Below are positions 12,376-28,800 of a stretch of DNA of 32,172 nt, piece after piece. The DNA lies in NCBI GenBank assembly GCA_039588275.1, contig JBDHAC010000039.1, positions 1-32,172 on the forward strand, in the 5' to 3' direction. Position numbers and translations under genes: made by a program. How positions within the stretch are numbered: position 1 is the stretch's first letter; the number at the start of each line of letters is the position of its first letter. A model generated the notes under the pieces. The model saw nothing but the letters and a program-made list of their open reading frames with translations, was not told the origin of the DNA and made no database searches. Origin of the DNA: Gemmatimonadota bacterium. GTDB taxonomy: Bacteria; Gemmatimonadota; Gemmatimonadetes; Palauibacterales; Palauibacteraceae.

Positions 12376-12376
12376 G

Positions 12377-14197
12377 TCAGGAACCCACTGAGGCCCTCCT
12401 GGGCCGGTGCGCGGCCCAGACGCTCCTCCCCTCCCATCTCTTCCGCGCTCCCGCAGTCCCGACCGGGCCTTTCGCCACGAACGGGCCTAGCTGCAAGTAG
12501 TCGAGGTCGCTGTCGAGAAAAGCCTTCACGGCATCCTCCGCCGTGCGTACGATCGGTTCCTCGTGGACGTTGAACGACGTGTTTATCACGGCGGGAAAGC
12601 CGGACAGCTTTCTGTACTCGTCGATAATCGCATAGAAACCCGGGTTGTCCAGCTCGCGCACCAATTGCGGGCGGGCCGTGCCGTCGACGTGGACGACACC
12701 TGCGCCGAATTCACACATCCAATCGGTGCAGTGAAATGTGGTCGTCATGAAGCGCGCTGTCTCACGACCTCCGGCGGCATTCAGATACAGCTCATCGCTG
12801 TACTCGTCGAGTGATGCGGGGGCGAACGGCATGAACTCGGTGCGCTGCAGCAGCTCGTTCAGCCAGTCGTTCACCGTCGGATCGTCCGCTCGATACATGA
12901 TGGAACGGTTGCCCAGGGCACGGGGGCCATATTCGAGCTTGCCCGTCGCACGTGCGACGACGTGTCCTTCGTGCAGGAGTCTCGCCGTGTGCGCTGCCAC
13001 GTCCCTCGGGGATTCGAACTCGAGCTGGGTGGCCCTCAGGGCGTCCTCGCAGAGCGATTCGTCGATTTCGGTACCGAGATGTACGGTCGATAAGACCTGC
13101 GGCTCGATACGCCGACCGCGGCGCCGCGCCGCCTCGTGACTCAAGGCCAGCGCGGCACCGACACCCAAACCCTCATCGCTCATCCCGGGGTGGACGAAGA
13201 CTCTCTCCACCCCTTCCAGATCAAGGATCTCCTCGTTGATCCGGACGTTCGCGAACACCCCTCCCGCGAGCGCGACCTGCGAGTGCCCCGTGACCTGCAG
13301 CCAGTGCCGAAGGAGGGAGGTCGCGACCTCCTCGGCTACCACCTGAATCGTGGCCGCGAGGTCCGCGTGGGACCACCCTTCGGGCAGCGACGCACGGAGT
13401 CGGTCCAGCGCGCTGTTGAAGAGCACCCGCCCCTTGTTGATCAGGCGCCCGTCCTCGCAACCGATCAGCGACTCGAACAGCTCCCGGTAGACAGGATCCC
13501 CACGGGCCGCCAGCCCCGTGATCTTCCCCTCGTGGCGCTTCGCCTTGAACCCGCACAGTGCGGTCACGTAGGCGTAGTAGTTCCCCAACGAATCATATGA
13601 ATCCGTAGTCGAGAGTCTCTCGAAGTCGCCATTCCGGACGCTGTAGACGTGCGAGCAGTGGCCATCTCCCCCACCATCCATGGTGACGACGAGCGCGTCG
13701 TCAAACCCACTCGTGTGATACGCCGACGCCGCGTGTGCGTAGTGGTGGTGGAAGAAACGCACGGGGGCGCAAAACCCGAATTCATCTCGCAGGATGTCGC
13801 GGATTCGACGCCTGCGCTGAGCGTGGTAGGGCGCGCGAAGCCCGTAGTAGACTCGTTTGATCCCCGGAACGAAGGGGACGATACCTCCCAGCCGAGAGGC
13901 GGTGTGGAAGAACAGGTCGTGCACACCGTCGCGAGATTCCGCGCGTGCCTCGAACCACCCGGGCCACGCGTCGACGTCTTCTCGCAGCTTCATCCTGAGA
14001 TCCGAGACGGCGACCGCGCCGATTTCGGAAGGCTCGACACCCGCCAGCCGCAGCGCCTCTCGGATCGATTCGCGCGGGAATCCTCGCGCTTGCTTCAGGC
14101 GAACGATCCTCTCTTCATTCACGGCGGAGATAATGCGCCCGTCGTGCACCACGCAGGCACCGGACGTTTGGCCGTCCGCTAGTCCGAGGATCAACAT
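12377..14197 (-). CDS. NodU/CmcH/TobZ-family O-carbamoyltransferase
   Basis: MLILGL start; AVNEERIVR.K, HHYAHAASAY, DGGGD, HEGKITGLA, LAGGVFANV, EYGPRALGNRS, PFAP, HVDGTARPQ and NTSFN. Confidence 0.93.
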   Translation of the reverse strand: MLILGLADGQTSGACVVHDGRIISAVNEERIVRLKQARGFPRESIREALRLAGVEPSEIGAVAVSDLRMKLREDVDAWPGWFEARAESRDGVHDLFFHTASRLGGIVPFVPGIKRVYYGLRAPYHAQRRRRIRDILRDEFGFCAPVRFFHHHYAHAASAYHTSGFDDALVVTMDGGGDGHCSHVYSVRNGDFERLSTTDSYDSLGNYYAYVTALCGFKAKRHEGKITGLAARGDPVYRELFESLIGCEDGRLINKGRVLFNSALDRLRASLPEGWSHADLAATIQVVAEEVATSLLRHWLQVTGHSQVALAGGVFANVRINEEILDLEGVERVFVHPGMSDEGLGVGAALALSHEAARRRGRRIEPQVLSTVHLGTEIDESLCEDALRATQLEFESPRDVAAHTARLLHEGHVVARATGKLEYGPRALGNRSIMYRADDPTVNDWLNELLQRTEFMPFAPASLDEYSDELYLNAAGGRETARFMTTTFHCTDWMCEFGAGVVHVDGTARPQLVRELDNPGFYAIIDEYRKLSGFPAVINTSFNVHEEPIVRTAEDAVKAFLDSDLDYLQLGPFVAKGPVGTAGARKRWEGRSVWAAHRPRRASVGS

Positions 14198-14262
14198 GTC
14201 GGGGGTGAAGTCCAAGTTCCCGGGTTCGGTCCATCTGCCCTGCCGCGATGACTCGGCGAACG

Positions 14263-14278
14263 CGCATGATGCGTGCCA
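14263..14278 (-). promoter_or_regulatory. Candidate sigma-54 (-24/-12) promoter for the carbamoyltransferase operon
   Basis: Minus strand reads TGGCACGCATCATGCG versus consensus TGGCACG-N4-TTGC. GG-N10-GC spacing is exact, about 65 nt upstream of the ATG at 14197. Confidence 0.6.
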
Positions 14279-14570
14279 CCTGGGGGCGGAGCCCTCCGGA
14301 GCCATGCGAGTCACCGAAGGATCGAGGAATGCCGGGAACTGTCGACCATCGGGTCCTGCCCCAGGCGTCATCGGGTGGCCGCGAGTGTCGCCTGGCTACA
14401 ACGCCGACCCCTGCGAGCACCATGGGAGCTATACGGCGGCGGTCCAGGTCGGCCTTACGCCGGATTCCTTCCCCGGCGGCACGCCCGTACGTTCAAATGG
14501 AGGTGCGACGAACTTCCAGGAGGCCGGTCCGCGCCGGCCCACGTGATCGAGCCACGGCCACGGACGACAC

Positions 14571-17252
14571 ATGCCGCTAGTCGCGTTCGCGCTCAACGGT
14601 CGAGAGACCTCGGTGGAGTACGACGAGGGAATGAACTTCCTCGAGGTGCTCAGGGATGTCCTCGGGATCATTTCGCCGAAGGACGGGTGCGCCCCCCAGG
14701 GGGTGTGCGGCTGTTGCACGATCCAGGTGGAGGGACGCGCTGTCCTTGCCTGTCGTTGCAAGCCCGAGTCCGTCGCGGGGAAGCGAGTGACCACTCTTGA
14801 GGGAATCCCCGAATCACGACGTCAGATGCTGGCAGACGCGTTCACGCGCGAGGGCGGACTTCAATGCGGCTACTGCACTCCTGGCATCGTCATGCGGGCT
14901 TCCTCACTCATCGATCGCGGCGGAGCGCACGACCGCGATGCCGTCGCGCGCTCTCTCTCGGGTCACCTGTGTCGCTGCACCGGCTACAAGCGGGTCGTAG
15001 ACGCCATCCTGACCGCTGACGCGGCCTCGAACGAAACGGGACGGCTTTCCGGCTCAGAACCGCGACATGCGCTCTTCTTCGGGGAGGACTTCGGTCTCGC
15101 ACGCACGACGGGCCACACTCCCAATGGTGTGGGCAGCTCGAGTGACCGCTTTCGGGCGAAGGATCACGCGTTGGGCGACAAGCCCTACGTGGCCGATATG
15201 GTGATGGACGAGATGCTCCACGCTTCAGTGGTGCTCAGTCCCCACGCTCGCGCGCGTGTGCTCGAGATCGATGCGGCGGTGGCCCACGCGATGCCGGGCG
15301 TAGAACGCGTACTCCTGGCGAAGGATGTACCGGGCGAGAGACATATCGGGCTCATCCGACCCGATTGGCCCGTCCTCATCGCCGTGGGCGAGGTCACGCG
15401 CTGCGTGGGCGACGTGCTGGCCCTCGTTCTGGCGGATACGCGGATCCACGCGCGTGACGCGGCGCAGGCGCTCGAGGCCGCGGTTGAATGCGAGGTTCTC
15501 GACCCGGTCTCGGACCCTGATGGGGCGCTCGCGCCGGAAGCGCCCGAGCTACATGAGGGGGGCAACCTTCTGGAGGTCTGCCGCTTCTCGCGCGGCGATG
15601 TCGATGGCGCACTGGCGGTATCGGAGCACGTGCTGGAAGAGGTCTTCGCCACGCAGCGGATTGAGCACGCGTTTCTGGAGCCCGAAGCGTGCGTCGCGGT
15701 ACCGATGACCGAAGAGACCGGCAGGGTCACCCTCAAGGTGTATTCGCAGGGCCAGGGCGTGCACGACGACCAGGCTCAGATCGCATCGGTGCTGGGACTT
15801 CCGCCTGAGATGATCGAGGTCGAGCTCGTGGCGAACGGGGGCGCGTTCGGGGGCAAGGAGGACCTCTCGATACAGGCCCAGACCGCGTTGGCCGCGCTCA
15901 TCACGGGACGGGCGGTGCGCACGATACTCACCCGTGAGCAGTCCATGCGCATGCACCCCAAGCGGCACCCGATCACGCTCCGCTACACGGTCGGCGCGGA
16001 CGCGGACGGGCATCTGACCGCGGTGCGGGCGCGCATCGTCGGCGACACCGGCGCTTACGCTTCGGTCGGGATGAAAGTGCTCGAGCGCGCCGCCGGGCAC
16101 TCCTGCGGGCCATACCGGGTCCCGAACGTCGACATCGAGGCGAAGACCGTCTACACGAACAACCCACCTTGCGGGGCGATGCGCGGCTTCGGCGCCAACC
16201 AGGCCGCGTTCGCGATCGAGGGCATGATGGACCTGGTCGCGCAGGCGGCCGGGATCGACGGGTACGATGTTCGGGAGAGGAACATCCTCGAGCCGGGAGA
16301 CGCGTTCGCGACCGGGCAGTTGATGACGGAGAGCTGCGGCATCCGACAGACGCTCGAGGCCGTGCGAGACGTCTACAAGGGGGCCCGCTACGCCGGGATC
16401 GGGTGCGGGATCAAGAATACCGGCATCGGGAACGGGATGGATGACAGCGGTCGCTTGTTGCTGCGCGTCGGCGAGGGCGGGGCGATCGAGATCCTCACCG
16501 GATACACCGAGATGGGACAGGGTCTGTATACCATCCTTCGGCAGGTGATCACCGAGGAAACGGGGCTCGACCCGGAGCTCATGAGCGTACGGACGGCCAG
16601 CGACCCACGAGTGGTGTGCGGGATGACGACGGCCTCGCGGGCCACGGCGCTCCTGTGCGCCGCTGGACAAGTCGCGGCACGCAAGCTGACGACCGACCTG
16701 GAGGGGCGGTCTCTGGAAGACCTCGCGGGTCGGGAGTACCTGGGCGAGTACGTGTGCGATTTCACCACCAAGCCGGGCGAGGAGGTCGAGAACCCCACCA
16801 CGCACATGACGTTCAGCTACGCGACACAGGTCGTGATCCTCGGTGAAGACGGCCGCGTGTCGCGCGTGGTGGCCGTGCACGATGTCGGCCGGGCGATCAA
16901 CCCGCTGCTGTGCGCGGGGCAAATCGAAGGCTCCGTTCACATGGGCCTGGGGTACGCGCTCAGCGAGGATTTCCCGTGCACCGACGGCCGACCCGACTCT
17001 CTTCTGTTGCGGGATCTCGGGATCGTGAAGGCGAAGGACACGCCACCTATCGACGTCATCCTGGTCGAGGTACCTGACGAGGTCGGCGGGTACGGCGCAA
17101 AGGGTGTGGGTGAGATCGGTCTCGTCCCGACCGCCGGCGCGGTCGCCGGCGCGCTGTACGCGTACGACGGAGTCCGGCGGTTCGCTCTTCCGATGAGCGA
17201 CGCCCCGGCCGCGGCCCCCTCGGTGCCCAAATCGCGGCGCGGATCCTCCTGA
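14571..17252 (+). CDS. xdh: Xanthine dehydrogenase-family molybdenum hydroxylase, fused 2x[2Fe-2S] and Mo-binding domains (Se-dependent Xdh/XdhD-like)
   Basis: GCAPQGVCGCC..C, QCGYCTPG, HLCRCTGY, HAFLEP, GGAFGGK, AMRGFG, EMGQG, GQIEG and GAKGVGE. No FAD domain. Confidence 0.92.
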   Translation: MPLVAFALNGRETSVEYDEGMNFLEVLRDVLGIISPKDGCAPQGVCGCCTIQVEGRAVLACRCKPESVAGKRVTTLEGIPESRRQMLADAFTREGGLQCGYCTPGIVMRASSLIDRGGAHDRDAVARSLSGHLCRCTGYKRVVDAILTADAASNETGRLSGSEPRHALFFGEDFGLARTTGHTPNGVGSSSDRFRAKDHALGDKPYVADMVMDEMLHASVVLSPHARARVLEIDAAVAHAMPGVERVLLAKDVPGERHIGLIRPDWPVLIAVGEVTRCVGDVLALVLADTRIHARDAAQALEAAVECEVLDPVSDPDGALAPEAPELHEGGNLLEVCRFSRGDVDGALAVSEHVLEEVFATQRIEHAFLEPEACVAVPMTEETGRVTLKVYSQGQGVHDDQAQIASVLGLPPEMIEVELVANGGAFGGKEDLSIQAQTALAALITGRAVRTILTREQSMRMHPKRHPITLRYTVGADADGHLTAVRARIVGDTGAYASVGMKVLERAAGHSCGPYRVPNVDIEAKTVYTNNPPCGAMRGFGANQAAFAIEGMMDLVAQAAGIDGYDVRERNILEPGDAFATGQLMTESCGIRQTLEAVRDVYKGARYAGIGCGIKNTGIGNGMDDSGRLLLRVGEGGAIEILTGYTEMGQGLYTILRQVITEETGLDPELMSVRTASDPRVVCGMTTASRATALLCAAGQVAARKLTTDLEGRSLEDLAGREYLGEYVCDFTTKPGEEVENPTTHMTFSYATQVVILGEDGRVSRVVAVHDVGRAINPLLCAGQIEGSVHMGLGYALSEDFPCTDGRPDSLLLRDLGIVKAKDTPPIDVILVEVPDEVGGYGAKGVGEIGLVPTAGAVAGALYAYDGVRRFALPMSDAPAAAPSVPKSRRGSS

Positions 17253-19378
17253 TGGCGGAGCTCGAACCGATCCCCTTCCCGCACCTCGTGCGTCGCATGA
17301 GACGCGAGGTGGAGACGAGCGGCTCGATCTTCGACCTCCCGATTCGAAAGTGGTGGGTGCCGGACGGTCACATGGACTTCTCGGCTCTCCATTTCGCGCG
17401 TCGCGCTTCCACGCCCGTGGGGCCGGCTGCGGGCCCGCACACGCAACTGGCGCAGAATATCGCCCTCGCGTGGCTGGCCGGGGGCCGCATCGTGGAGATC
17501 AAGACGGTGCAGGTGAACGACCGGCTCGATATCCCGCGCCCCTGCATCCACGCGCCGAACATCGGTTACAACGTCGAATGGTCGCAGGAGCTCCGCGTCG
17601 AGGAGTCCACGCTCGAGTACGCGAAGGCGGCTTATCTGATCGAGATCCTCAAGGCCACGCGCGCGTTCGGCGCTTATCCGTCCGATGCCGGCTTCGACAC
17701 GGTGTTCGACATCAGCGTCGGGTACGATCTCCAGGGGATCCGCGGCGAGAAGGTCACGGGCTTCATCGAGGCTCTCAAGCACCCGGGCACGATCTTCGAC
17801 GAGCTGCGCGGTCAGCTGACGGGCGATGTGGCCGAATTCCGTGACCTTGCTCTCCCGGACTGCATCTCGGACTGCGTCACGCTCTCCACGTTTCACGGCT
17901 GTCCGGCCGACGAGATCGAATCCATCGCTCGCTACCTGCTCGAGGAGCTCGGACTCCACACGATCATAAAGCTGAACCCGACGCTGCTGGGCTTCGAGCG
18001 TGTGCGGGAGCTCCTCGTGGATCGACTCGGGTACACGCACCTGAAGCTCCGGCGCGAGGCATTCGACGTCGACCTCCAATACGAGGCGGGTCTGGACATC
18101 CTCAGGCGCCTGCGGTCGGTGGCCGAGAGCATCGGTTCGATCGTGGGCGCCAAGTTCACGAATACGCTGGTCGTCGAGAACGACCCCGCCATCTTCGCGA
18201 CGCAGGCGGATCCGTACATGTACGTCTCGGGACCTCCGCTCCACGTCATCTCGATGAACCTGATGCAGCGGTTTCGGGAGGATCTGGGGTTCGAGTTCCC
18301 CGTCTCGTTCTCGGCCGGAATCGACGTCAAGAACGTGGCCGCCGCGGTCGCGTGCGGGATGGTCCCCGTCACGACGTGCACAGACCTGCTGCGCCAGGGA
18401 GGGTTCGGCCGGCTGTCGGGATACCTGCGCGCTCTCGCGCGCGCCATGGAGCGTTGCGGGGTCACGACCCGCGAGGCCTACGTACTGGCGGCGCACGGAC
18501 ACGCGGCTGCCGCCGTGCGAGAGGCGCTGGCCGCGTTTTCCGGAGGCGAGGCCGCCTGCGAGCGGCAGGGGGCGCGACTGGAGACGGTGGCGCTGGAGGC
18601 GCCCGACGAGCTCCCGGGCGCGCTGCGCGACGCCGCGGACGCGGCGGGGCTGGACGGCGATGCGTTGGCCCTCCACGCGACGCGGGTGGCCGGCCGCTTG
18701 AACGGCCGGGACATCGTGCCCCCATTGGCCGATGATCCGCGCTACTCGGCGGACTCGAACGCCAAGACGCCGCGTCGAATCGAGAGCGTCCTCGAGCTGT
18801 ACGACTGCATCAACTGCGATCTGTGCATCTCGGCCTGTCCCAACGACGCCATCTTCGCATACGAAGCCCGGCCCATGGAGACGGACACGGAAATCCTCGA
18901 GCTGCCAGGCGACGGATCGCTGCAGCGGGTGCCAGGTGAGGGGTTCGCGATCCTCGAATCGCACCAGTTGGCCGTGCTGGAGAGCGCCTGCAACGAGTGC
19001 TCGAACTGCGACGTCTACTGCCCGGAGCACGGGGCCCCGTTCCTGATCAAGGAACAACTCTTCCTGGGAGCCGATACCTTCCATGCCTCCGGGGCGGATG
19101 GCTTCTGCCGCGTCGGAGACACGCTGCTCGGACGCGTTCGCGGCCGCGAGCTCCGCCTCGACGTGGAGCCGGGGTCGAACCGCGCGGTCGTGACCACCGA
19201 CGGCGTGGTGCTGCACCTGTCCTGGGAGCCCCTCGAGGTCCTGGGCGCGCGGAGGACCACCGCCGACGGATCCGCGGGGAGGGCGGCGACCGACACAGCA
19301 GTCCTGTGGCGCATGAAGACGGTGTGGGATCGGATCTACGGGGCTTCGGCACCCAATCCGGTCAACACGGACGCGTAG
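17252..19378 (+). CDS. ygfK: YgfK-like oxidoreductase, short form (flavin TIM-barrel plus 2x[4Fe-4S])
   Basis: GPAAGPHTQLAQNI, YNVEWSQEL, TLSTFHGCP.DEIE.I, KLNPTLLG, KFTNT, CINCDLCISACP and CNECSNCDVYCP. TGATG overlap with xdh. Confidence 0.85.
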   Translation: MAELEPIPFPHLVRRMRREVETSGSIFDLPIRKWWVPDGHMDFSALHFARRASTPVGPAAGPHTQLAQNIALAWLAGGRIVEIKTVQVNDRLDIPRPCIHAPNIGYNVEWSQELRVEESTLEYAKAAYLIEILKATRAFGAYPSDAGFDTVFDISVGYDLQGIRGEKVTGFIEALKHPGTIFDELRGQLTGDVAEFRDLALPDCISDCVTLSTFHGCPADEIESIARYLLEELGLHTIIKLNPTLLGFERVRELLVDRLGYTHLKLRREAFDVDLQYEAGLDILRRLRSVAESIGSIVGAKFTNTLVVENDPAIFATQADPYMYVSGPPLHVISMNLMQRFREDLGFEFPVSFSAGIDVKNVAAAVACGMVPVTTCTDLLRQGGFGRLSGYLRALARAMERCGVTTREAYVLAAHGHAAAAVREALAAFSGGEAACERQGARLETVALEAPDELPGALRDAADAAGLDGDALALHATRVAGRLNGRDIVPPLADDPRYSADSNAKTPRRIESVLELYDCINCDLCISACPNDAIFAYEARPMETDTEILELPGDGSLQRVPGEGFAILESHQLAVLESACNECSNCDVYCPEHGAPFLIKEQLFLGADTFHASGADGFCRVGDTLLGRVRGRELRLDVEPGSNRAVVTTDGVVLHLSWEPLEVLGARRTTADGSAGRAATDTAVLWRMKTVWDRIYGASAPNPVNTDA

Positions 19379-19406
19379 CGTCGAGGGGCCCGGCTCGAGA
19401 TCGACG

Positions 19407-20807
19407 ATGCGGAAGAGATTCACGAATCTTCGGTTGCCAGCGGGCGGTGACGAGACCGCCACCGCCGAGGTCCTGGTTCTTGACGGTCGGATCGCCGAGG
19501 TCGGCCCGCCGGGATCCGCGCCGGCGGAGGCGGATGAAGAGGTCATCGATCTGGGAGGCGCGCTCGTTCTTCCCGGCGCGATCGACGGTCACGTTCACTT
19601 CGACGATCCGGGCTTCACGCACCGCGAGAACTTCGAGACCGGGACCCGCGCGGCCGCCGCGGGTGGCGTCACCTGCATCGTCGACATGCCGTGTACATCC
19701 CTTCCTCCTGTCACGTCGCGTGCGAACCTGCGCGAGAAGTTGGCCGTGATCTCGCCAAAGGCTCACGTGGATTTCCTGTTGTGGGGCGGCGTGTCGGACA
19801 ACGCCCTCGAGGAGCCCGACTGGCGGGTCCATCTCGAAGAAATCGTCGAGGAGGGCGTCGGGTCGATCAAGGTCTACATGCTGTCCGGCATGGAGACGTT
19901 CCGTGACCTGTCGAGGAGCCAGCTGGCGGAGGTGTTGGCCGAGACGCGGCGGCTCGGCGTCCCCGTCGGGGTGCACGCCGAGGACCGCGATCTGGTGCGT
20001 GCACTGACCGGGCATCTGCAGGCCGAGGGAATGGATGATCCGCTCGCGTATGCGGCATCGCGCCCGCCCGCGGCGGAGATCAAGGCCGTCGAGACGATGC
20101 GGGATCTGTGCAGGGAGACGGGAGCCAGAACCCACATCGTGCACCTGGCCACCGGCTGGGCCCTCGATATCGTGACGGCCGCGAGAGAGGAAGGTCTCCC
20201 GATGACGGCCGAGACCTGCCCGCATTTCCTGCAGTTCACGGCGCACGACCTCGCCGACCAGGGAGCCCTCCTCAAGACGGCACCGGTCGTCAAGTCGCCC
20301 GCCGACCGGGACCGGCTGTGGACGGGGCTCGCATCCGGCGAGCTGGAGTTCGTGGCCACCGATCATGCCGCCGGGCAGTGGCCCGACGAGAAGCACACGG
20401 GCTCCATCTGGACCGATTACGGTGGTGTCCCCGGGGTCGAGCTCCTCCTCCCCTATCTGTACTCGGAGGGTGTGGGGCGCGGCCGGATCACACTCGAGCG
20501 CCTCACGGAGGTCACCGCCTCCGCACCGGCGAAGTTCTTCGGAGTCGAGAGGCGAAAGGGACGCATCGCGCCGAGCCTCGATGCCGATCTCGTCGTCCTG
20601 GACGAGAGCGAGACGTGGACCGTTCGCGCCAACGAGCTGCACAACCTGAACCGGTATACGCCTCTGGAGGGGTACCGGCTCACGGGCCGCGTTCGGGGCG
20701 TGTTTCTCCGCGGCGAGCAGATCTTCCGACGTGAAGACGGCGGCGAAACGTTCGGAGCCGCGGGCTTCGGAGAGCGAGTGCGTCGGGGAACCGCAGTCGC
20801 GGGCTGA
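19407..20807 (+). CDS. Cyclic amidohydrolase, allantoinase/dihydroorotase-like
   Basis: DGHVHFDDPG.T.RE.FETGTRAAAAGGVT..VDMP, GVHAED, HIVHL, ETCPH and ATDH. Confidence 0.88.
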   Translation: MRKRFTNLRLPAGGDETATAEVLVLDGRIAEVGPPGSAPAEADEEVIDLGGALVLPGAIDGHVHFDDPGFTHRENFETGTRAAAAGGVTCIVDMPCTSLPPVTSRANLREKLAVISPKAHVDFLLWGGVSDNALEEPDWRVHLEEIVEEGVGSIKVYMLSGMETFRDLSRSQLAEVLAETRRLGVPVGVHAEDRDLVRALTGHLQAEGMDDPLAYAASRPPAAEIKAVETMRDLCRETGARTHIVHLATGWALDIVTAAREEGLPMTAETCPHFLQFTAHDLADQGALLKTAPVVKSPADRDRLWTGLASGELEFVATDHAAGQWPDEKHTGSIWTDYGGVPGVELLLPYLYSEGVGRGRITLERLTEVTASAPAKFFGVERRKGRIAPSLDADLVVLDESETWTVRANELHNLNRYTPLEGYRLTGRVRGVFLRGEQIFRREDGGETFGAAGFGERVRRGTAVAG

Positions 20808-20818
20808 GAGGCCGCGCC

Positions 20819-22177
20819 ATGAACCAGACCGTACTCGGGAACGGAGTGGTCGTCACCGGCTGGAGCGAGCCGCGCATCATCGTCGATGGTGCGGTGGGCT
20901 GGCACGATGAGCGGATCGTGTCGATCGGGGACCAGACCGAGGTTCGAGCCGCGCTCCCGGAGGCCCGCTTCCTGGACGCGGGCGGCGGGCTGATCCTACC
21001 CGGGCTCGTGAACCTGCACCACCATTTCTACTCGGCGCTCGCTCGTGGGCTGGACCCCGGGGCGAGCATGAAGAACTTCGGCGAGGTGCTCGATCGACTG
21101 TGGTGGAGGCTCGACCGCGCGCTGGACCCCGCGACCGTAAGCCTCTCGGCCTCCTTGTCGGTGGCGGAGTGCGTCCGTCACGGGTGCACGACCGTGTTCG
21201 ACCACCACGCGTCCCCATCCTTCATCGATGGCAGCCTGGACGCGATCGCCGATGCGGTGGAGGAAGCGGGGATCTCGGCCGCCCTCTGCTACGAGGTCAC
21301 CGACCGGAACGGCCGCGAGGGAGCGGCCGCCGGGATCGAGGAGAACCTCCGGTTCCTGGCAGAGCGCGAGGGCGACGCCCGCATCCGGGGCGTGTTCGGG
21401 GTCCACGCCAGCTTCACAGTCGGCGACGAGACGCTGGCGGCGGTCGCGGAGCGGCGGCCCCCCGGGGCCGGTTGCCACATTCACGTGGCAGAGGACCCGA
21501 TCGATGTCGAGGCGTCGGTGGAGGCGTTCGGCGCCGGGCCGGTGCAGCGCCTGGAACGATCCGGGTTGCTGGATGGGGATGCTCTCCTCGCGCACGCTAT
21601 CCATCTCGAGGACCGCGATTACGAGCGGGCGGCAGCAGCCGGCTCTACCCTGATCCACAACCCCGAGTCCAACGCCAACAACGGCGTCGGGCGACTGGAC
21701 GCCTCCGAGGCGGCCAGATCGGGGTGTCTGGTCGGGCTCGGAACGGATGGCATGTCATCGTCCGTCCTGCGCGCTTTACGCTTCGCGTTTCTCACGCACC
21801 GCGGAGCCATGCGCGACCCGGCGTCGGGTTTCGAGCTCCTCCCCGATCTGCTGACCAACAACGTGCGAGTGGCGCGTCGGTTCTTCTCCGAGCCGCTCCT
21901 GGGCGAGCTTTCAGCCGGCGCCCCGGCGGATGTCATCGCCGTCGATTGCGTGCCGCCGACCCCGATCTCGCCGGAGAACCTGTTCGGACACCTCGCGTAC
22001 GGCGCCAGCGAAGCGATCGTACGACACACCGTGGCGCGCGGCAGGGTGCTCCTGGAAGACTTCACGCACACGACGCTCGATCCTGGACAGCTGGCGGCCC
22101 GGGCGCGAGAAGCGGCGCCGGCCCTGTGGCAGCGGTTTCATTCGCTGGATTGGGGCACGAGCTTTCTCGGGCGCTAG
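20819..22177 (+). CDS. ssnA: SsnA-family amidohydrolase
   Basis: HHHFYSALARG, LWWRLDRAL, DHHASP, CYEVTDR.G, HASFT, HIHVAE, HNPESN.NN.VG and GTDG. Confidence 0.9.
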   Translation: MNQTVLGNGVVVTGWSEPRIIVDGAVGWHDERIVSIGDQTEVRAALPEARFLDAGGGLILPGLVNLHHHFYSALARGLDPGASMKNFGEVLDRLWWRLDRALDPATVSLSASLSVAECVRHGCTTVFDHHASPSFIDGSLDAIADAVEEAGISAALCYEVTDRNGREGAAAGIEENLRFLAEREGDARIRGVFGVHASFTVGDETLAAVAERRPPGAGCHIHVAEDPIDVEASVEAFGAGPVQRLERSGLLDGDALLAHAIHLEDRDYERAAAAGSTLIHNPESNANNGVGRLDASEAARSGCLVGLGTDGMSSSVLRALRFAFLTHRGAMRDPASGFELLPDLLTNNVRVARRFFSEPLLGELSAGAPADVIAVDCVPPTPISPENLFGHLAYGASEAIVRHTVARGRVLLEDFTHTTLDPGQLAARAREAAPALWQRFHSLDWGTSFLGR

Positions 22178-22210
22178 CAGCCTGCCAGCAGCCTGTCACG
22201 GAGGAGGAGA

Positions 22211-23713
22211 ATGAGCCAGCGGCCGACGGACATCGTCGATGAGGAGGCCCGCGGGCGCGCGGTGGAGCGGTGCCGGGAGCGCGGGATCCTCATCCCCACC
22301 TTCGCGCAGATGCGCGATCCCGCCGCGCTCGACGTCGCCATCACGGATGCGCTCGCCGGCGTGGACATGCAGGCCGTGGACCCGCTCAACCTGTTTCGAA
22401 TCACGTGGCGCAACGATACGGGCTCGGGCCGGTTCGGAGAGGTGAACACGTTCGAGGTACCGTCGGAAGTGACCGGCGTGCCGGCGCGCATCGTGGGCCT
22501 GGTCGGAGCGCACTTCCCCACCGGCGCGCACAAGGTGGGGGCCGCGTTCGGGTGCCTCGTGCCGCGCCTCGTCACGGGCGAGTTCGATCCCTCGGTTCAT
22601 CGCGCGGTGTGGCCATCAACCGGCAACTACTGCCGCGGGGGTGCGTTCGACAGCGCGTTGTTGGGGTGTCAGGCGGTGGCGATCCTGCCCGAAGAGATGA
22701 GCCGTGAGCGGTTCGACTGGCTGGGTGAGATCGGTGCCGAGGTCATCGCTACGCCGGGCGGCGAGAGCAACGTGAAGGAGATCTTCGACGTCTGCTGGGA
22801 GATCCGTCGGACGCGGTCGGAGGCGGTGATTCTCAACCAATTCGACGAGTTCGGGAACTACCTGTGGCACTATGGCGTGACCGGCCCGGCCGTCGAGGCG
22901 GCGTTCGGCCGCATCGCCGGCCCCGGGGACCGTTGCGCCGCGTGGGTAGGTGCTACGGGGTCCGCGGGGACCTTGGCGGCGGGCGACTACCTGAAACGCG
23001 TTCGGTCCGAATGCCGCATCACTGCCGCGGAGGCGCTGCAGTGCCCCACCCTACTCCTGGGCGGATTCGGCGAGCACCGCATCGAGGGCATCGGTGACAA
23101 GCACGTTCCCTGGATCCACAACGTGCGCAACACGGATTTGGTGACCGCGATCGATGACGAGGCGACGCTACGCCTCTTGCGGCTGTTCAACGAGCCCGAG
23201 GGGCATCGAACGCTCATCGAGCGCGGCGTGGCCGAGGAGGATGTCCGGCGGCTTCCGCTGCTCGGCATCTCGAGCATCTGCAACCTGTTGGCGGCCATCA
23301 AGACGTCCCGCTACTTCGAGCTCGACGAGGGTGATGTCCTGTTCACCTCGTTCACCGATTCGGTCGACCTGTATCGGACCCGGCTGGAAGAGCTCGCCGA
23401 GGTGCGTGGGCCATATACCGTGCGGGAGGCGGAGATCGACATCGAGCGCTACCTCCTGGGTGCCACCACGGACCACCTGCGCGAGCTGCGCTACACGGAT
23501 CGCAAGGCGCTTCACAACCTGAAGTACTTCACCTGGGTAGAGCAGCAGGGGAAGACCGCGGAGGAACTGAATGCGTTATGGAGCCCGGCGTTCTGGGAGG
23601 ACCTGGCCGGACAGCTGCCCTGGTGGGACGAGGCCATCGCCGCGTTCAACGACGAGACGGGGGCGCTGAACCGGGTGCGGGAGCGGGCCGAAGCGGCGGG
23701 AGCGGCAACCTGA
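22211..23713 (+). CDS. PLP-dependent fold-type II enzyme, extended cysteine-synthase-like (500 aa)
   Basis: PTGAHKVG (PLP Lys), STGNY, NQF, GSAGT, HRIEGIG and GISS. GGAGGAG RBS. Confidence 0.85.
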   Translation: MSQRPTDIVDEEARGRAVERCRERGILIPTFAQMRDPAALDVAITDALAGVDMQAVDPLNLFRITWRNDTGSGRFGEVNTFEVPSEVTGVPARIVGLVGAHFPTGAHKVGAAFGCLVPRLVTGEFDPSVHRAVWPSTGNYCRGGAFDSALLGCQAVAILPEEMSRERFDWLGEIGAEVIATPGGESNVKEIFDVCWEIRRTRSEAVILNQFDEFGNYLWHYGVTGPAVEAAFGRIAGPGDRCAAWVGATGSAGTLAAGDYLKRVRSECRITAAEALQCPTLLLGGFGEHRIEGIGDKHVPWIHNVRNTDLVTAIDDEATLRLLRLFNEPEGHRTLIERGVAEEDVRRLPLLGISSICNLLAAIKTSRYFELDEGDVLFTSFTDSVDLYRTRLEELAEVRGPYTVREAEIDIERYLLGATTDHLRELRYTDRKALHNLKYFTWVEQQGKTAEELNALWSPAFWEDLAGQLPWWDEAIAAFNDETGALNRVRERAEAAGAAT

Positions 23714-23741
23714 GGCCCCGGGCACGAGGGGTGTTCGGAGC

Positions 23742-24959
23742 ATGAGCCGGGAGCGGGGTCGCGCCGCGTTGGACGGCGCTCGCGGGTTCGAGACCGAGAT
23801 CGTGAGCTTCCTGCGCGAGCTGATCGCGATCCCGGCCGAGAGCCGGCGCGAGGGCGAGCGCTGCGAGCGCGTGCGGCGCGAGTACGAAGCTCTCGGGTTC
23901 GACGAGGTATTCTTCGATCGTCTCGGGAACGTCGTCGCCCGGATCGGAAGCGGACCGTTCACGATCCTGATGGACGGCCACATCGACTGCGTCGGCGTCG
24001 GGGACCCCGACGCGTGGGACCACGATCCGTTCGAGGGCAAGTTCGAGGACGGGTTGGTGTGGGGCCGGGGCGCGGTGGACGAGCTGCCGGCGGTCGCTTG
24101 CATGGCGTACGGGGCCCGGTTGCTGCGGGAGCGCGGGCTCCCCGACGAGATCACGCTCTATCTGACGGCCTCGGTCATGGAGGAGGATTGTGACGGGTAC
24201 TGTCTGCTCCATTTGATCGAGAACGAGGGTATTCGACCCGACGCCGTCGTGATCGGGGAGCCGACGGACCTGGATGTATACCGGGGTCACCGCGGCCGGG
24301 TGGAGGCCACGATTTCGACGGCGGGGGTGTCGTCGCACGCCGCGCACCCGGATGCGGGCGAGAACGCGTTGTACAAGCTGGCGCCCATCATCTCGGACAT
24401 CGAGGCCCTGAACGGGGGCCTGGCGTCCGACGACTTCCTCGGGGCGGGGACCGTGGTGGTCTCGTTCATCGAGTGCACGACGGCGTCGTTGAACGCGGTA
24501 CCGGATAGCGGGCGCATCTACATCGACCGCCGGCTCACCGCGGGGGAGACGGTCGAGAGCGCGGTCGCGGAGCTCCGTGCCCTGCCCCATCTGGGCGATG
24601 CGAGCGTCGAGCTCCTGGCGTACGACGAGACGAGCTGGAGAGGGGAGCGGGCACGCCAGGACAAGTACTTTCCCACGTGGGTCCTGCCGGAAGCGCACCC
24701 CCTCGTCGAGGGCGTCGCGGCGGCCGCAGGCGCGGTGCTCGGGTCGCCGCCGGCCATATCACGCTGGTCGTTTTCCACCAACGGGGTCGCGACGATGGGG
24801 CGCCACGGGATCCCGACGGTGGGGTTCGCCCCGGGACGGGAGGAGCTGTCACACACGACGCGCGAGCGGGTCTCCGTGGATGACCTCGTGCGGGCCACCG
24901 CAGTCTATAGCCTGATCCCCGAATACCTGGCCGAGCGCCGGGTGGAGCTGGAGGGATGA
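23742..24959 (+). CDS. ygeY: YgeY-family M20 hydrolase
   Basis: DGHID.V, GRGAVD, VMEEDCDG, GEPT...YRGHRGR.E, DRRLT.GE, WSFSTNGV and GFAPG.E..SH. Confidence 0.88.
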   Translation: MSRERGRAALDGARGFETEIVSFLRELIAIPAESRREGERCERVRREYEALGFDEVFFDRLGNVVARIGSGPFTILMDGHIDCVGVGDPDAWDHDPFEGKFEDGLVWGRGAVDELPAVACMAYGARLLRERGLPDEITLYLTASVMEEDCDGYCLLHLIENEGIRPDAVVIGEPTDLDVYRGHRGRVEATISTAGVSSHAAHPDAGENALYKLAPIISDIEALNGGLASDDFLGAGTVVVSFIECTTASLNAVPDSGRIYIDRRLTAGETVESAVAELRALPHLGDASVELLAYDETSWRGERARQDKYFPTWVLPEAHPLVEGVAAAAGAVLGSPPAISRWSFSTNGVATMGRHGIPTVGFAPGREELSHTTRERVSVDDLVRATAVYSLIPEYLAERRVELEG

Positions 24960-25975
24960 ACGCGGATCTATCGAACATGCAGCCCGTGGGCGAGGGGGCG
25001 AGCCCCGGCCTACGGGGCAGGGACCTCATCACCACACAGGAGTGGAGTCTGGATGAGCTGGAGGCGGTCTTCACGCTGGCTGCGAAGCTCAAACAGGCGA
25101 AGCGGGCGGGGGAACCGACGCCGTTCCTGCTCGGGAAGACGTTGTACATGATCTTCTTCGAGGCCTCTACCCGCACGCGGAACTCGTTCGAGACCGGCAT
25201 GACCCAGCTCGGAGGACACGGGATCGTGCTCTTCCCGGATCACATGCAGATTAGCCACGGAGAGACGGCGCGTGATACGGCGAAAGTCCTTTCGCGTTAC
25301 GGGGACGGGATCGCGATCCGGCATTGCATCTACGGGGAGGGGAACGCGTACCTGCGGGAGGTGGCCGAGAACGCCGACATTCCGGTGATCAGTATGCAGT
25401 GCGACGTGTATCACCCGTGTCAGATCCTGGCCGACTACATGACGATCCGCGAGAAGTTCGGGGACGATACGCGAGGATTGAAGCTCGGCGTCGCATGGAC
25501 CTGCGCTCCCAACTACATGCGGCCGATCTCCGTGCCTCAGAGCCTCATCCTGATGATGTCCCGCTTCGGGATGGATGTGACGCTGGCCTACCCGCCGGAG
25601 TTCCGGTTGCTGCCCGAGATCGAGGAGCAGGCACGCGCGAACGCGGAGGAGGCGGAAGCGAGTTTCGAGATCAGCCACCGCTTCGAGGATGCATTCGAGG
25701 ACGCGGACGTAGTCATCCCCAAGTCCTGGGGCCCCCTGGTCACGACGCCCGACCGGGTGGCCGGATTGCGATTGATCGACCGGTATCCGGAATGGCGGTG
25801 CGACGCAGCCCGCATGGCGCTGGGTAAGGACCACCTCATCTACATGCACCCGCTGCCGGCGGACAGGGGACGTGAGGTTACCGACGAGGTCATCGATGGA
25901 CCCCAGTCCGTCGTGTTCGACGAGGCCGAGAACCGATTGCACGTACAGAAGGCCCTCATGGCCCTCATCATGTGA
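24956..25975 (+). CDS. YgeW/AOTCase-type (knotted) carbamoyltransferase
   Basis: STRT, HPCQ and HPLP; KSW instead of the OTC SMG motif; RPISVPQS resembles YgeW KPLSVPQG; ends DEAENRLH.QKA. ATGA overlap with ygeY. Confidence 0.82.
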   Translation: MNADLSNMQPVGEGASPGLRGRDLITTQEWSLDELEAVFTLAAKLKQAKRAGEPTPFLLGKTLYMIFFEASTRTRNSFETGMTQLGGHGIVLFPDHMQISHGETARDTAKVLSRYGDGIAIRHCIYGEGNAYLREVAENADIPVISMQCDVYHPCQILADYMTIREKFGDDTRGLKLGVAWTCAPNYMRPISVPQSLILMMSRFGMDVTLAYPPEFRLLPEIEEQARANAEEAEASFEISHRFEDAFEDADVVIPKSWGPLVTTPDRVAGLRLIDRYPEWRCDAARMALGKDHLIYMHPLPADRGREVTDEVIDGPQSVVFDEAENRLHVQKALMALIM

Positions 25976-26011
25976 GGAGTGGGTTGCACGCGTGACCACC
26001 TTTGGAATCCC

Positions 26012-27253
26012 GTGAGTATGTTCAGGTTTCGCTGTACCGAGTGCGGCCGCGAGCACGCGGAGGAGAGGTCGCGTCTCGTGTGCGACGGCTGCGCCGCGCT
26101 CCAGGAGCCCGGGGGGCCCACACGGGGTGTTCTGGCCGTGGAGCTGGACGAGCTGCCCGGCGAGTGGCCAGCGGCCCGCGCGTCGGACCCGGCGTTCCTG
26201 ACCGCTTTCTTGCCGCTCGCTTCGGCCGCGTCGCTCCCGTCGATCCCCGTCGGCGGGACTCCGTTGCTCACGGCCCCCGAGCTGCGACAAGCGCTCGATC
26301 TGCCCCGCCTGTGGGTCAAAGACGACACGCGGAATCCGAGCGGCTCCACCAAGGACCGCGCATCTCTCCTGGTCGTCGCCAAGGCGCGCGAATACGGCTA
26401 CGAGACGGTCGCGACCGCCTCCAGCGGCAACGCGGCCACCGCCCTGGCCGCGGTCGGGGCCGCCGCCGGCATCCGCACGGTGCTCTTCGTCCCCGCGACC
26501 GCCCCGGAGGCCAAGCTCGTGCAGATGATCACGTACGGCTCCGAGGTCCTCCCCGTCGACGGGACCTACGACGAGGCGTTCGAGCTCTGCCTCGCCGCCT
26601 GCGACGAGTTCGGGTGGTACAACCGCAACACGGCCCTCAACCCGTTCACGATCGAGGGCAAGAAGACGGCCGCGCTCGAGATCGCGGCGTCCATGCGTCC
26701 GGAGTCACCGGACGTGGTCATCGTACCGGTCGGTGACGGGGTCATCCTGGCCGCGATCGCCAAGGGGTTCGCGGATCTGGTGCTGGCCGGTCTCATCGAA
26801 AGAAGTCCGCGCCTCATCGCCGTGCAGCCCGCCGGCTCGGCGGCCATCGTCCGCGCGCTGCGAGACGCGGCCGCCGCGATTACGCCGGTACCGGGCGCGG
26901 CCAGCGTCGCGGACAGTCTGAACGTCGAGACACCGCGCAACGCGATCCTGTGCCTGCAACGCGTGCGGGAGTCGGGTGGAGCGGGGGTGGAGGTGCCCGA
27001 CGAGGCGATCCTCCTCGCGATCCCGGATCTGGCGAGGCACACCGGAGTGTTCGCCGAGCCGGCGGCCGCGGCGACGCTTGCGGGTCTTCGCGCCGCGCTC
27101 GCCGAGGGCCTGGTCGACCACGATGAGAGAATCGTGCTGCTCGTCACCGGAAACGGGCTGAAGGACGTGCCGGCGGCAGCGCGCGCCGTCAGCCGGCCGC
27201 AGCCGATCCCGCCCGATCTCGGCGCCGTACGCGAATCCCTCGCCTCCTGGTAG
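26012..27253 (+). CDS. Threonine synthase-like PLP enzyme
   Basis: N-terminal CTECG...CDGC, GGTPL, NPSGSTKDR, ASSGN, EGKKT, PVGDG, EPAAA and VTGNGLKD. Start is GTG 26012 or ATG 26018. Confidence 0.88.
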   Translation: MSMFRFRCTECGREHAEERSRLVCDGCAALQEPGGPTRGVLAVELDELPGEWPAARASDPAFLTAFLPLASAASLPSIPVGGTPLLTAPELRQALDLPRLWVKDDTRNPSGSTKDRASLLVVAKAREYGYETVATASSGNAATALAAVGAAAGIRTVLFVPATAPEAKLVQMITYGSEVLPVDGTYDEAFELCLAACDEFGWYNRNTALNPFTIEGKKTAALEIAASMRPESPDVVIVPVGDGVILAAIAKGFADLVLAGLIERSPRLIAVQPAGSAAIVRALRDAAAAITPVPGAASVADSLNVETPRNAILCLQRVRESGGAGVEVPDEAILLAIPDLARHTGVFAEPAAAATLAGLRAALAEGLVDHDERIVLLVTGNGLKDVPAAARAVSRPQPIPPDLGAVRESLASW

Positions 27254-27276
27254 CCACCACCGGTCGTCAGGCGGAT

Positions 27277-28800
27277 ATGCCTCGGGTCGCCATCGCCTCC
27301 GTGTCCCAAATCGCCGTCGACGCCGGTGCGCAAGCTGTGGCGGAAGGCGGTAACGCCGTAGACGCCGCGGTCGCCACGACCCTGGCGGCCGCCGTCACGT
27401 CACCGGCGATGACTTCGCTTGGCGGGGGAGGGTATGCGACGATCTGGCCACCCGATGGACCGCCGGAGACCATCGACGGCGGTTTCGAAACGCCGGGGCG
27501 CGGGCTTGATCCAGCGAGGCTGGGCGGCGGACGCATCGACGTGCACATCGGCTACGCGGGTGGCACGGACACCACCGTCGGCCCAGGCTCGGTGGCCACC
27601 CCTGGCGTGCTCGCCCTCTGCGCGCTCGCTTCGGAGCGTCACGGTCGCCTTCCCTGGAAAGCGTTGGTGCAACCGTCGTACGAGCACGCGCGCGATGGAT
27701 TCCCACTCCCAAAGCCCTGCCATGATTATCTGGTGCACGCTCACGACTCCGTCTTCGGTTGGAACCACGATAGCTTCACCGCGCTCCACGACGCCGACGG
27801 GCAGTTGCTCGAGCCCGGGGCGCGGATTGAGGTCCCCGATCTTGCGGACAGCCTGCGATTGATCGGCGAGCAAGGCGCCGACGCGTTCTACCGAGGTGAG
27901 CTGGCCCGGCGAGTCGCCGATTACATGGAACGGGAAGGCGGCATCGTGACCGCGGACGATTTGGCCGCCTACCGTGGGAGGGTCCGGAAGGCGCTTACTA
28001 TCGACCATTCCGGGTGGCGCGTCGCGACGAACCCACCCCCCGCCGTCGGCGGGGTCGTCCTCGCGGCCATGTTGCTCCTGATGGGCGGCCGGCCGAGGGA
28101 GCGGTGGAGCACTCGGGAGGTGGAGCGGCTGATCCGGGTGCAGGAGGCGGTCCTGCTACACCGTCACGATGTGCTGATCCGAGCCGATGACCTCACCGCG
28201 GAGGCGAGCGCCCTCCTGAGGCGGGCGGATGCGGGGAACCTCCCCGGCCGAATGTCGGCTTCCACCGTCCATACGTCGGCCGTGTCCAGCGACGGTCTCG
28301 CGTGCTCGATCACGATCTCGGAGGGGTACGGATCGGGCGCCATCGCACCCGGGACGGGGATCTGGCTCAACAATTCGCTGGGCGAGCTCGAGCTCAATCC
28401 GCGAGGATTCCACCAGTCGCCGCCGGGCCACCGACTACCTTCCAACATGGCCCCGTCCGCGGCACGGTCGCCGGATGGAACCGTGCTTGCGATCGGGTCG
28501 CCCGGGGCAGACCGGATCACCACCGCGATCCTGCAGGGGACGCTGAACATCATCGATCTGAAGCTGCCCCTCCAGGCAGCGGTCGATCACCCGCGACTGC
28601 ACGTCAAGCTGACCGACGAGGGCTCGCTGGTGAGGTTCGAGGAGGGGCTGCCGGTAGAGGAATTGAGTGTGAACAGCCACTGTGTCGGCAAGCGTGTCAT
28701 GTACTTCGGCGCTGTCGAGGCGGCGGCCTTCCACCCCGTAGCAGGCCTGGAGGCTGCAGCGGATGTCCGCCGGGTTGGAGGAACGGCGGTCGCGGGCTAG
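27277..28800 (+). CDS. Gamma-glutamyltransferase-family Ntn hydrolase
   Basis: GGNAVDAAVA, SLGGGGY, SVATPG, FYRGELA, DLAAY, STVHTSAV (putative Thr nucleophile), GIWLNN, GSPG and PRLH. Confidence 0.88.
   Translation: MPRVAIASVSQIAVDAGAQAVAEGGNAVDAAVATTLAAAVTSPAMTSLGGGGYATIWPPDGPPETIDGGFETPGRGLDPARLGGGRIDVHIGYAGGTDTTVGPGSVATPGVLALCALASERHGRLPWKALVQPSYEHARDGFPLPKPCHDYLVHAHDSVFGWNHDSFTALHDADGQLLEPGARIEVPDLADSLRLIGEQGADAFYRGELARRVADYMEREGGIVTADDLAAYRGRVRKALTIDHSGWRVATNPPPAVGGVVLAAMLLLMGGRPRERWSTREVERLIRVQEAVLLHRHDVLIRADDLTAEASALLRRADAGNLPGRMSASTVHTSAVSSDGLACSITISEGYGSGAIAPGTGIWLNNSLGELELNPRGFHQSPPGHRLPSNMAPSAARSPDGTVLAIGSPGADRITTAILQGTLNIIDLKLPLQAAVDHPRLHVKLTDEGSLVRFEEGLPVEELSVNSHCVGKRVMYFGAVEAAAFHPVAGLEAAADVRRVGGTAVAG

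Follow-up and report, generated by a model that had tools for sequence, protein, structure and literature searches.

How might a bacterium carry the reductive breakdown of urate to its end if the operon that appears to encode the pathway lacks the enzyme of the final step? This question is raised by positions 14571 to 28800 of contig JBDHAC010000039.1 from a Gemmatimonadota bacterium, analysed within a stretch of 32,172 nucleotides (the window) from a genome of 4.1 Mb with a GC content of 0.67 and a completeness of 85.8%. The oxygen-free urate route was worked out in gut bacteria in 2025 and, according to the available portions of two reports, runs from urate through 2,8-dioxopurine, a reduced ring, ureidomethyl-hydantoin, diureidopropionate, a mono-ureido compound and diaminopropionate to pyruvate (10.1101/2025.05.19.654654; 10.1101/2025.04.24.650524). 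In this article, I will argue that eight genes of this stretch probably encode the same reductive 2,8-dioxopurine route in a form where ferredoxin takes the place of the nicotinamide cofactor NAD(P)H and two pyridoxal phosphate (PLP) enzymes, a long CysK-like protein called PLP500 here and a ThrC-like protein, together do the job of YgeX. The argument is built on genes, domain losses, folds and co-occurrence, together with the activities published for the orthologs of E. coli and Clostridium; all activities at this locus, the electron donor and which PLP enzyme acts first are inferred from these.

A conserved order of eight genes

The original prediction, made from the DNA letters, described nine co-directional, close-packed genes, and this packing is real: the nine open reading frames all lie on the plus strand, their spacers are -1, 28, 11, 33, 28, -4, 3 and 23 nt (a range of -4 to 33 nt), their GC content at third codon positions is 0.80-0.89 and their families were assigned by profile scans. 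The operon that is conserved beyond chance has eight genes, from xdh to the thrC-like gene, and is shared with related non-gut bacteria. Conservation elsewhere had been proposed as the test for all nine; the order of eight is kept in 9 of the 40 relatives searched, all nine within the 24 genomes of the same family (counting G002, where it is spread over two contigs, and G015, where PLP500 lies in two frames), and also in L002, L006, L011 and L123. The split of the G015 gene (L090:8883-10432) is a frameshift or an assembly error. PLP500 orthologs of at least 64% identity occur in 10 of the 40 relatives, the tenth (G030) carrying PLP500 alone and no operon.

The ninth gene does not belong to this unit. 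Its GGT-like product (267 versus 358 on the GGT family model) has an ortholog in 16 of the 24 family genomes, 8 of the 9 with the operon and 8 of the 15 without it, and a search with this GGT query found none in the Acidobacteriota-like operon carriers. Because the gene adjoins the operon only in two genomes of the same genus and is present in more than half of the operon-free family genomes, it is likely a passenger, and membership in the pathway was rejected.

Two PLP enzymes where YgeX is expected

Genomes were sampled by the presence of ssnA and not by the PLP enzymes, since choosing them by the counted feature was to be avoided. The first sample comprised 251 genomes from the phylum of G067 (Acidobacteriota-like by GC content and nearest matches), of which 35 were ssnA-positive at E 1e-90 and 21 over the cut-off; G067 and G043 were known beforehand as PLP500 carriers, the threshold for the ThrC-like protein was set afterwards in the gap between 423 and 339 bits, and the negatives include the unpublished genome G113, on which alone no claim rests. 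The second comprised 301 genomes from the phylum of a Halanaerobiales record, likely Bacillota, with 68 ssnA-positive. Among the ssnA-positive genomes of the first sample, PLP500 is present in 33 of 35 (versus 1 of the 20 listed ssnA-negative genomes), the cluster-type ThrC-like protein in 31 (versus 0) and YgeX in 5 (versus 2); both PLP enzymes occur together in 29, YgeX never occurs without either, and YgeX is found in 3 of the 4 genomes lacking the ThrC-like protein versus 2 of the 31 possessing it. The second sample gave PLP500 in 57, the ThrC-like protein in 57 and YgeX in 17 of the 68 (each in 0 of 12 ssnA-negative genomes), with both PLP enzymes in 55 (10 of them also with YgeX), neither in 9 (7 with YgeX) and 4 discordant, including G386, whose PLP500 gene is cut by a contig end, and G582, which has a short CysK-type gene. 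The PLP pair is commoner than YgeX in the genomes sampled. Also, PLP500 is encoded in at least 598 genome stretches, and among the best 80 of these loci 58 hold another pathway gene, 44 the ThrC-like gene and none YgeX; a YgeX-family gene was detected in 7 of the 61 PLP500 genomes searched (11 relatives and 50 of the 80 loci).

The predicted departure of the final steps from the known pathway is therefore upheld, YgeX being absent from the operon and two PLP enzymes present in it, but the added enzymes are not special to this lineage, since the pair is the commonest form in both samples. If G386 and the short substitutes are included, every ThrC-like protein seen has a CysK-fold partner: in or close to the clusters of G275, G296 and G582, ThrC-positive and with no trace of PLP500, lies a short CysK-type gene (adjoining ssnA in G582) whose product has the PLP500 motifs STGN, ES[DN]V, IEGIGD and CP, unlike E. 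coli CysK, and among 120 listed homologs of these short proteins STGN is found in 120 and IEGIGD in 116. A two-step ending is suggested because YgeX alone suffices, the ThrC-like protein always has this partner, and PLP500 can stay with YgeX in place of the ThrC-like protein; YgeX is described as active on both D and L diaminopropionate in the available text (10.1101/2025.05.19.654654), so one enzyme can replace two. The simpler idea that PLP500 alone substitutes for YgeX was dropped, as in the first sample the ThrC-like protein, not PLP500, trades places with YgeX.

That same trade (in G067, G194 and G265 PLP500 stays) would also suit an ending in which the ThrC-like protein alone is the diaminopropionate lyase and PLP500 works on a side branch, where it would split urea off albizziin, the regio-isomer whose alpha-amine is free, or scavenge free diaminopropionate. 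Such a branch would fit G030, which keeps PLP500 with YgeX and without ssnA, and the available literature, where papers disagree on the ureido group that YgeW removes and albizziin builds up in an overexpressing strain (PMC12990295; 10.1101/2025.05.19.654654). However, nine genomes of the Bacillota-like sample lose both enzymes together, and the ThrC-like protein has its constant CysK-fold partner, making a side branch unlikely.

Folds and chemistry of the pair

PLP500 belongs to PF00291 and does not qualify as the cysteine synthase CysK by model cut-off (81 versus 351 on TIGR01139, a weak match) or by motif, TSGN and IQGIGA marking CysK. Its structural model (pLDDT 92) matches Fn1220 with a Z score of 34.5 and diaminopropionate lyase with only 22.5, which would place it in the beta-replacement (CysK/CBS) fold branch and not among the eliminating lyases, and its acidic loops look suited to a diamine; the ESM Atlas offered generic PALP clusters only. 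The close family of PLP500 has invariant cysteines, of which Cys141 is not kept in divergent members.

The ThrC-like protein scores 182 versus 167 on the thrC model TIGR00260 and 257 versus 303 on PRK08197. The arginine before the EG(Q/K)KT motif, which I take to bind phosphate in threonine synthase, is a threonine in this protein and is an arginine in 0 of 79 cluster copies, and is kept in solved ThrC and in the separate ThrC paralog of the source genome; by this residue, the protein does not qualify as a threonine synthase.

Could the two enzymes instead be lyases working in parallel, each on its own enantiomer of diaminopropionate? The breadth of YgeX and the occurrence of the pair with D-hydantoinase-type as well as allantoinase-type ring openers speak for it, but the predicted fold branch of PLP500 does not, nor does RidA, which lies beside 3 of the 6 YgeX-only loci (L142, L145 and L147, one of which was the query) versus a single weak match in the 73 loci with the pair, and I consider parallel lyases quite unlikely. 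In the sequential ending preferred here, the intermediate leans, on small numbers, towards serine rather than the other diaminopropionate enantiomer, because a serine hydroxymethyltransferase gene lies inside the module (between or right after the thrC-like and PLP500 genes) in 2 of the 73 loci and RidA is tied to the YgeX-only ones. The two loci are L073:2877-6938 (Synergistaceae) and L155:13851-17786 (a Bacillota-like cluster). In the Elusimicrobiota loci L013, L015, L016 and L017, a CpXC-domain gene comes after PLP500 at a site apart from the rest of the pathway, and where a PLP500 locus holds no pathway genes the surrounding genes pointed to no common function.

A front end without flavin-NAD modules

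The Xdh protein passes TIGR03311 (874 versus a cut-off of 830), has the selenium-dependent nicotinate dehydrogenase 3hrd as its best solved relative and is 41% identical to the Xdh of L142, a YgeX-type Bacillota cluster. Of the three markers of selenium-dependent molybdenum hydroxylases (SelD, YqeB and YqeC), SelD is present, and searches of operon genomes (84-96% complete, one closed) detected neither of the others, with YqeC in 0 of 11 and YqeB in 0 of 6; yqeC was detected in none of 10 genomes of Gemmatimonadota type and in 2 of 25 that are Acidobacteriota-like. SelD is uninformative as a marker of the operon, being family-wide (5 of 5 genomes with the operon and 5 of 5 without); its gene in the source genome (G000:C4:94346-95272) holds one in-frame TGA, and a tRNA-Sec is encoded as well.

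With yqeC so rare, the CysK fold and the invariant cysteines could suggest that PLP500 takes over from YqeB and YqeC as the source of sulfur or selenium for the molybdenum enzyme. I find this scarcely plausible: PLP500 tracks the ThrC-like protein, Cys141 is lost in divergent members, and in the Bacillota-like sample yqeC is present in 24 of 34 genomes with PLP500 versus 8 of 11 without, a co-occurrence by which PLP500 as a YqeC substitute is largely rejected.

The second enzyme is a YgfK that has lost its middle. It does not pass full-length TIGR03315 (384 versus 835), its best stretch covering only positions 4-398 of 1012 in addition to C-terminal 4Fe-4S motifs, and it is 39% identical to residues 5-405 of E. 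coli YgfK, the flavin mononucleotide (FMN) domain. Alignment of short and long forms shows one clean internal deletion of about 390 columns, in which the start of the central module is joined to the C-terminal ferredoxin with the CxxCxxCxxxC motif rebuilt; no GxGxxG motif was found. A fold search was needed because a sequence search of the PDB with the YgfK alignment gave no matches, and the model (pLDDT 93) matched the FMN barrel of pig DPD at residues 528-932 (Z 27.0, rmsd 2.5, 294 aligned). A FastTree built on the shared domain gathers 28 short forms, whose records cover at least six phyla, into a single branch (SH 100) and places two Bacillota-like short forms elsewhere. These two (L144:6299-7999 and L146:15375-17084, about 550 amino acids, in YgeX-type clusters and on long branches) are a second, separate shortening, and a further reductase variant is seen in L007, L014, L018, L102, L109, L110 and L116, where a fused PreT-PreA-type protein (mostly about 830-850 amino acids) stands in place of YgfK.

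Ferredoxin is the likely electron donor of the short YgfK in place of NAD(P)H, by analogy to UacX/PydAc and because the source genome encodes 2-oxoacid:ferredoxin oxidoreductases. Three free-standing proteins with flavin adenine dinucleotide (FAD) and NADPH domains are candidate partners in trans, two of them beside those oxidoreductases. That flavin-NAD modules are missing was correctly noticed, with YgfK lacking its FAD/NADPH module and Xdh an FAD subunit, but this is not new in kind, given C. sporogenes XdhAC and C. difficile XdhD and UacX. The source genome, at its level of completeness, yielded no full-length YgfK elsewhere.

Ring opening and removal of ureido groups

The third gene passes the allantoinase model TIGR03178 (381 versus 358) and fails the D-hydantoinase model TIGR02033 (269 versus 393). 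Since it scores alike on an allantoinase (3hm7, 230.9 bits) and an L-selective hydantoinase (1gkr, 230.1 bits; D-hydantoinases reach at most 204) and its type forms a clade apart from HyuA, L-selectivity is possible. The predicted replacement of HyuA holds, with this gene in its place and no HyuA found elsewhere in the genome (85.8% complete), and no D-hydantoinase over cut-off was found in any of five operon genomes, the source genome and one closed chromosome included.

SsnA, the only copy in the genome, lies just under PRK07203 (441 versus 444) and is 37% identical to E. coli SsnA, and YgeY passes PRK13004 and TIGR03526 (455 versus 321) with 45% identity to its E. coli counterpart. The carbamoyltransferase passes neither the ornithine carbamoyltransferase (OTC) nor the YgeW models, and is 35% identical to E. 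coli YgeW, whose proline-rich loop it retains; in a tree, long YgeW nests inside the short forms, away from the OTC of the source genome. It was thus rightly called YgeW-like, but its short form is not special to this genome, occurring in Bacillota clusters too. Six other loci (L031, L038, L063, L072, L079 and L149) have a second, more distant carbamoyltransferase branching toward the aspartate-type outgroup, often just before short YgeW, which could act on the alpha-ureido group.

An operon for a different N-heterocycle, or for allantoin, would be in keeping with the allantoinase match of gene 3, with Asn621 in Xdh and with the failure to find YqeB and YqeC in the operon genomes searched. However, the orthologs of YgfK, SsnA, YgeY and YgeW in one operon are the published urate set, the same PLP pair dominates Bacillota-like clusters, and genes for a guanine-deaminase-type protein and a three-subunit XDH flank the operon in relatives, directly upstream in G013, G015 and G180; a substrate other than urate is therefore very unlikely in my judgment. 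The source genome has such genes at G000:C35:29659-33995 (59-71% identical to those of the three relatives), together with nucleobase permeases and heme-copper oxidases, and a search for uricase found none in it.

The proposed pathway and the points against it

The view of the operon as a conserved form of the 2,8-dioxopurine cluster agrees with these findings: the YgfK, SsnA, YgeY and YgeW orthologs stand together, their order is kept in relatives, and an ortholog or positional substitute is present for all seven published steps. Of the features by which a urate cluster is recognized, the molybdenum hydroxylase of XdhD/XdhAC type, the YgfK- or UacX-type ring reductase and the clustered SsnA, YgeY and YgeW (or UacY) orthologs are all encoded, and HyuA and YgeX are absent from the operon. 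In the proposed sequence, Xdh would reduce urate, and the short YgfK would reduce the ring at its FMN with electrons arriving by way of its pair of 4Fe-4S clusters. The rings would be opened by SsnA and the allantoinase-type enzyme, and the short YgeW and YgeY would strip the ureido groups, with ATP formed through an unlinked carbamate kinase (G000:C3:39224-40180). PLP500 would then act first on diaminopropionate, either replacing the 3-amino group to give serine or inverting the stereocentre, and the ThrC-like enzyme would eliminate to pyruvate, the pair converting diaminopropionate overall to pyruvate and ammonia.

Several observations weigh against this proposal. All three enzymes are present in twelve genomes (10 of 68 and 2 of 35), with their genes side by side or almost so in G609 and G343, which means that strict redundancy does not hold. 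G030, a closed genome, and G103 have PLP500 but no ssnA. A quick tree puts the short CysK-type proteins among ordinary CysK and apart from PLP500, and the sampled genomes are kin, so that Fisher values for co-occurrence overstate. Xdh carries Asn621 where three YgeX-type clusters have Val and, with YqeB and YqeC not found, substrate or cofactor may differ. Finally, the source genome and its genus have an unlinked YgeX-family gene (G000:C48:396-1661; 404 bits versus a cut-off of 276) that fails the narrower TIGR03528 (287 versus 532), and the claim that DpaL/YgeX had been replaced is accurate only for the operon, where a CysK-fold and a ThrC-like enzyme stand and YgeX does not; this genus is alone among the operon relatives, no YgeX being found in 7 of 7 family operon carriers of other genera, nor in G047.

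A bolder extension is tempting and rather doubtful: that the two-PLP ending is both the majority form and the older one, making serine through a novel beta-replacement, either ahead of pyruvate or in place of it, and feeding glycine and one-carbon metabolism, and that the version here would be selenium-independent and ferredoxin-driven with an L-selective opener in an oxygen-respiring, non-gut host, so that the pathway would predate the gut.

Gene list and surroundings

Table 1. The nine genes of positions 14571-28800 with their predicted roles.
Position	Strand	Product	Predicted role
14571..17252	+	Fused 2Fe-2S and molybdopterin hydroxylase of XdhAC/DOPDH type, no FAD subunit, 893 aa	Probable reduction of urate to 2,8-dioxopurine (predicted)
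17252..19378	+	Short YgfK, FMN barrel and two 4Fe-4S motifs, 708 aa	Likely ferredoxin-fed 2,8-dioxopurine reductase (predicted)
19407..20807	+	Allantoinase/L-hydantoinase-type cyclic amidohydrolase in the place of HyuA, 466 aa	Likely opens ureidomethyl-hydantoin (predicted)
20819..22177	+	SsnA amidohydrolase, 452 aa	Probable opener of the six-membered ring (predicted)
22211..23713	+	PLP500, long CysK/CBS-fold PLP enzyme, 500 aa; Lys108, acidic E185, E292 and D296	
23742..24959	+	YgeY M20 hydrolase, 405 aa	Likely takes off the last ureido group, giving diaminopropionate (predicted)
24956..25975	+	Short YgeW-type carbamoyltransferase, 339 aa	Probable source of carbamoyl phosphate (predicted)
25979..27253	+	ThrC-like PLP enzyme without the threonine-synthase arginine, 424 aa	Likely terminal lyase (predicted)
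27277..28800	+	GGT-like Ntn hydrolase, 507 aa	Likely passenger

A scan for promoters and terminators returned no promoters and five terminator-like sites versus 5.0 expected. Divergent genes for a NodU/CmcH-type carbamoyltransferase and a methyltransferase lie on the minus strand at 11359-14371 of the window, 199 nt upstream of the operon, and a second, putative N-heterocycle locus elsewhere in the genome (G000:C9:30656-42287) encodes another molybdenum hydroxylase trio, an NCS1 permease, an amidase and an M20 hydrolase.

Relation to known systems

The pathway itself is known and flavin-free variants have been published in kind from Clostridia. No paper describing the PLP pair, the deleted form of YgfK or the allantoinase-type replacement turned up in a search that covered few subscription journals and no supplements of the pathway papers. 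The terms 'threonine synthase' and 'cysteine synthase' have 0 occurrences in PMC12507026, in which, according to the available text, Li et al. scored YgeX by Pfam PF00291; since this family covers both PLP enzymes here, such scoring would merge the pair with YgeX. Surveys that count only genomes with ygeX would overlook most carriers, because 51 of the 68 ssnA-positive Bacillota-like genomes lack it. If the proposal is true, two widespread families would have to be given new annotations in place of their present labels, threonine synthase and cysteine synthase. Furthermore, the urate pathway is being engineered into probiotics, with stereochemistry, electron donor, selenium need and gut origin among the open questions (PMC12990295), and the operon offers a compact test set for them, combining a FAD-less YgfK, an allantoinase-type opener, no YqeB or YqeC found in the operon genomes searched and a host with heme-copper oxidases in which no uricase was found.

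One close familiar system is that of E. coli K-12 (ygeW-ygeX-ygeY-hyuA-yqeA ... ygfK-ssnA-ygfM-xdhD), for which the same route is predicted and with which SsnA, YgeY, YgeW and the YgfK FMN domain share the identities given above (37%, 45%, 35% and 39%). In contrast to E. coli, the operon here is without YgeX, HyuA, YgfM, YqeA and YqeB/C, has two extra PLP enzymes and a YgfK without the FAD/NADPH module, and its Xdh is only 25% identical to XdhD. By its published description, C. sporogenes XdhAC is similar to the Xdh here, both proteins being fused Fe-S/Mo enzymes with no FAD domain and nearest to selenium-dependent nicotinate dehydrogenase; in the available text it is equated with DOPDH, lacking the FAD domain and not using NAD(P)H (10.1101/2025.04.24.650524), and XdhD and UacX of C. 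difficile are likewise described without FAD modules (10.1101/2025.05.19.654654). All cluster-bearing gut strains of Liu et al. have YqeBC and SelD, as far as the available portions of that report tell (10.1101/2025.04.24.650524), whereas here SelD is family-wide and YqeB/C were not found in the operon genomes searched. The short YgfK resembles, from what is available on them, UacX and clostridial PydAc (likely ferredoxin-dependent, L142 being an example) in having an FMN barrel and 4Fe-4S clusters with no FAD domain, but it is a deletion form of YgfK, about 700 amino acids long, and not a PF01180 PydA homolog of about 380. Similarly, the ThrC-like protein has the fold, catalytic lysine and PLP loops of threonine synthase without its arginine, and PLP500 shares these three features with the fold-type II PLP branch of CysK, CBS, Fn1220, CmnB and SbnA, from which it is set apart by about 150 extra residues and acidic substitutions in its substrate loops.

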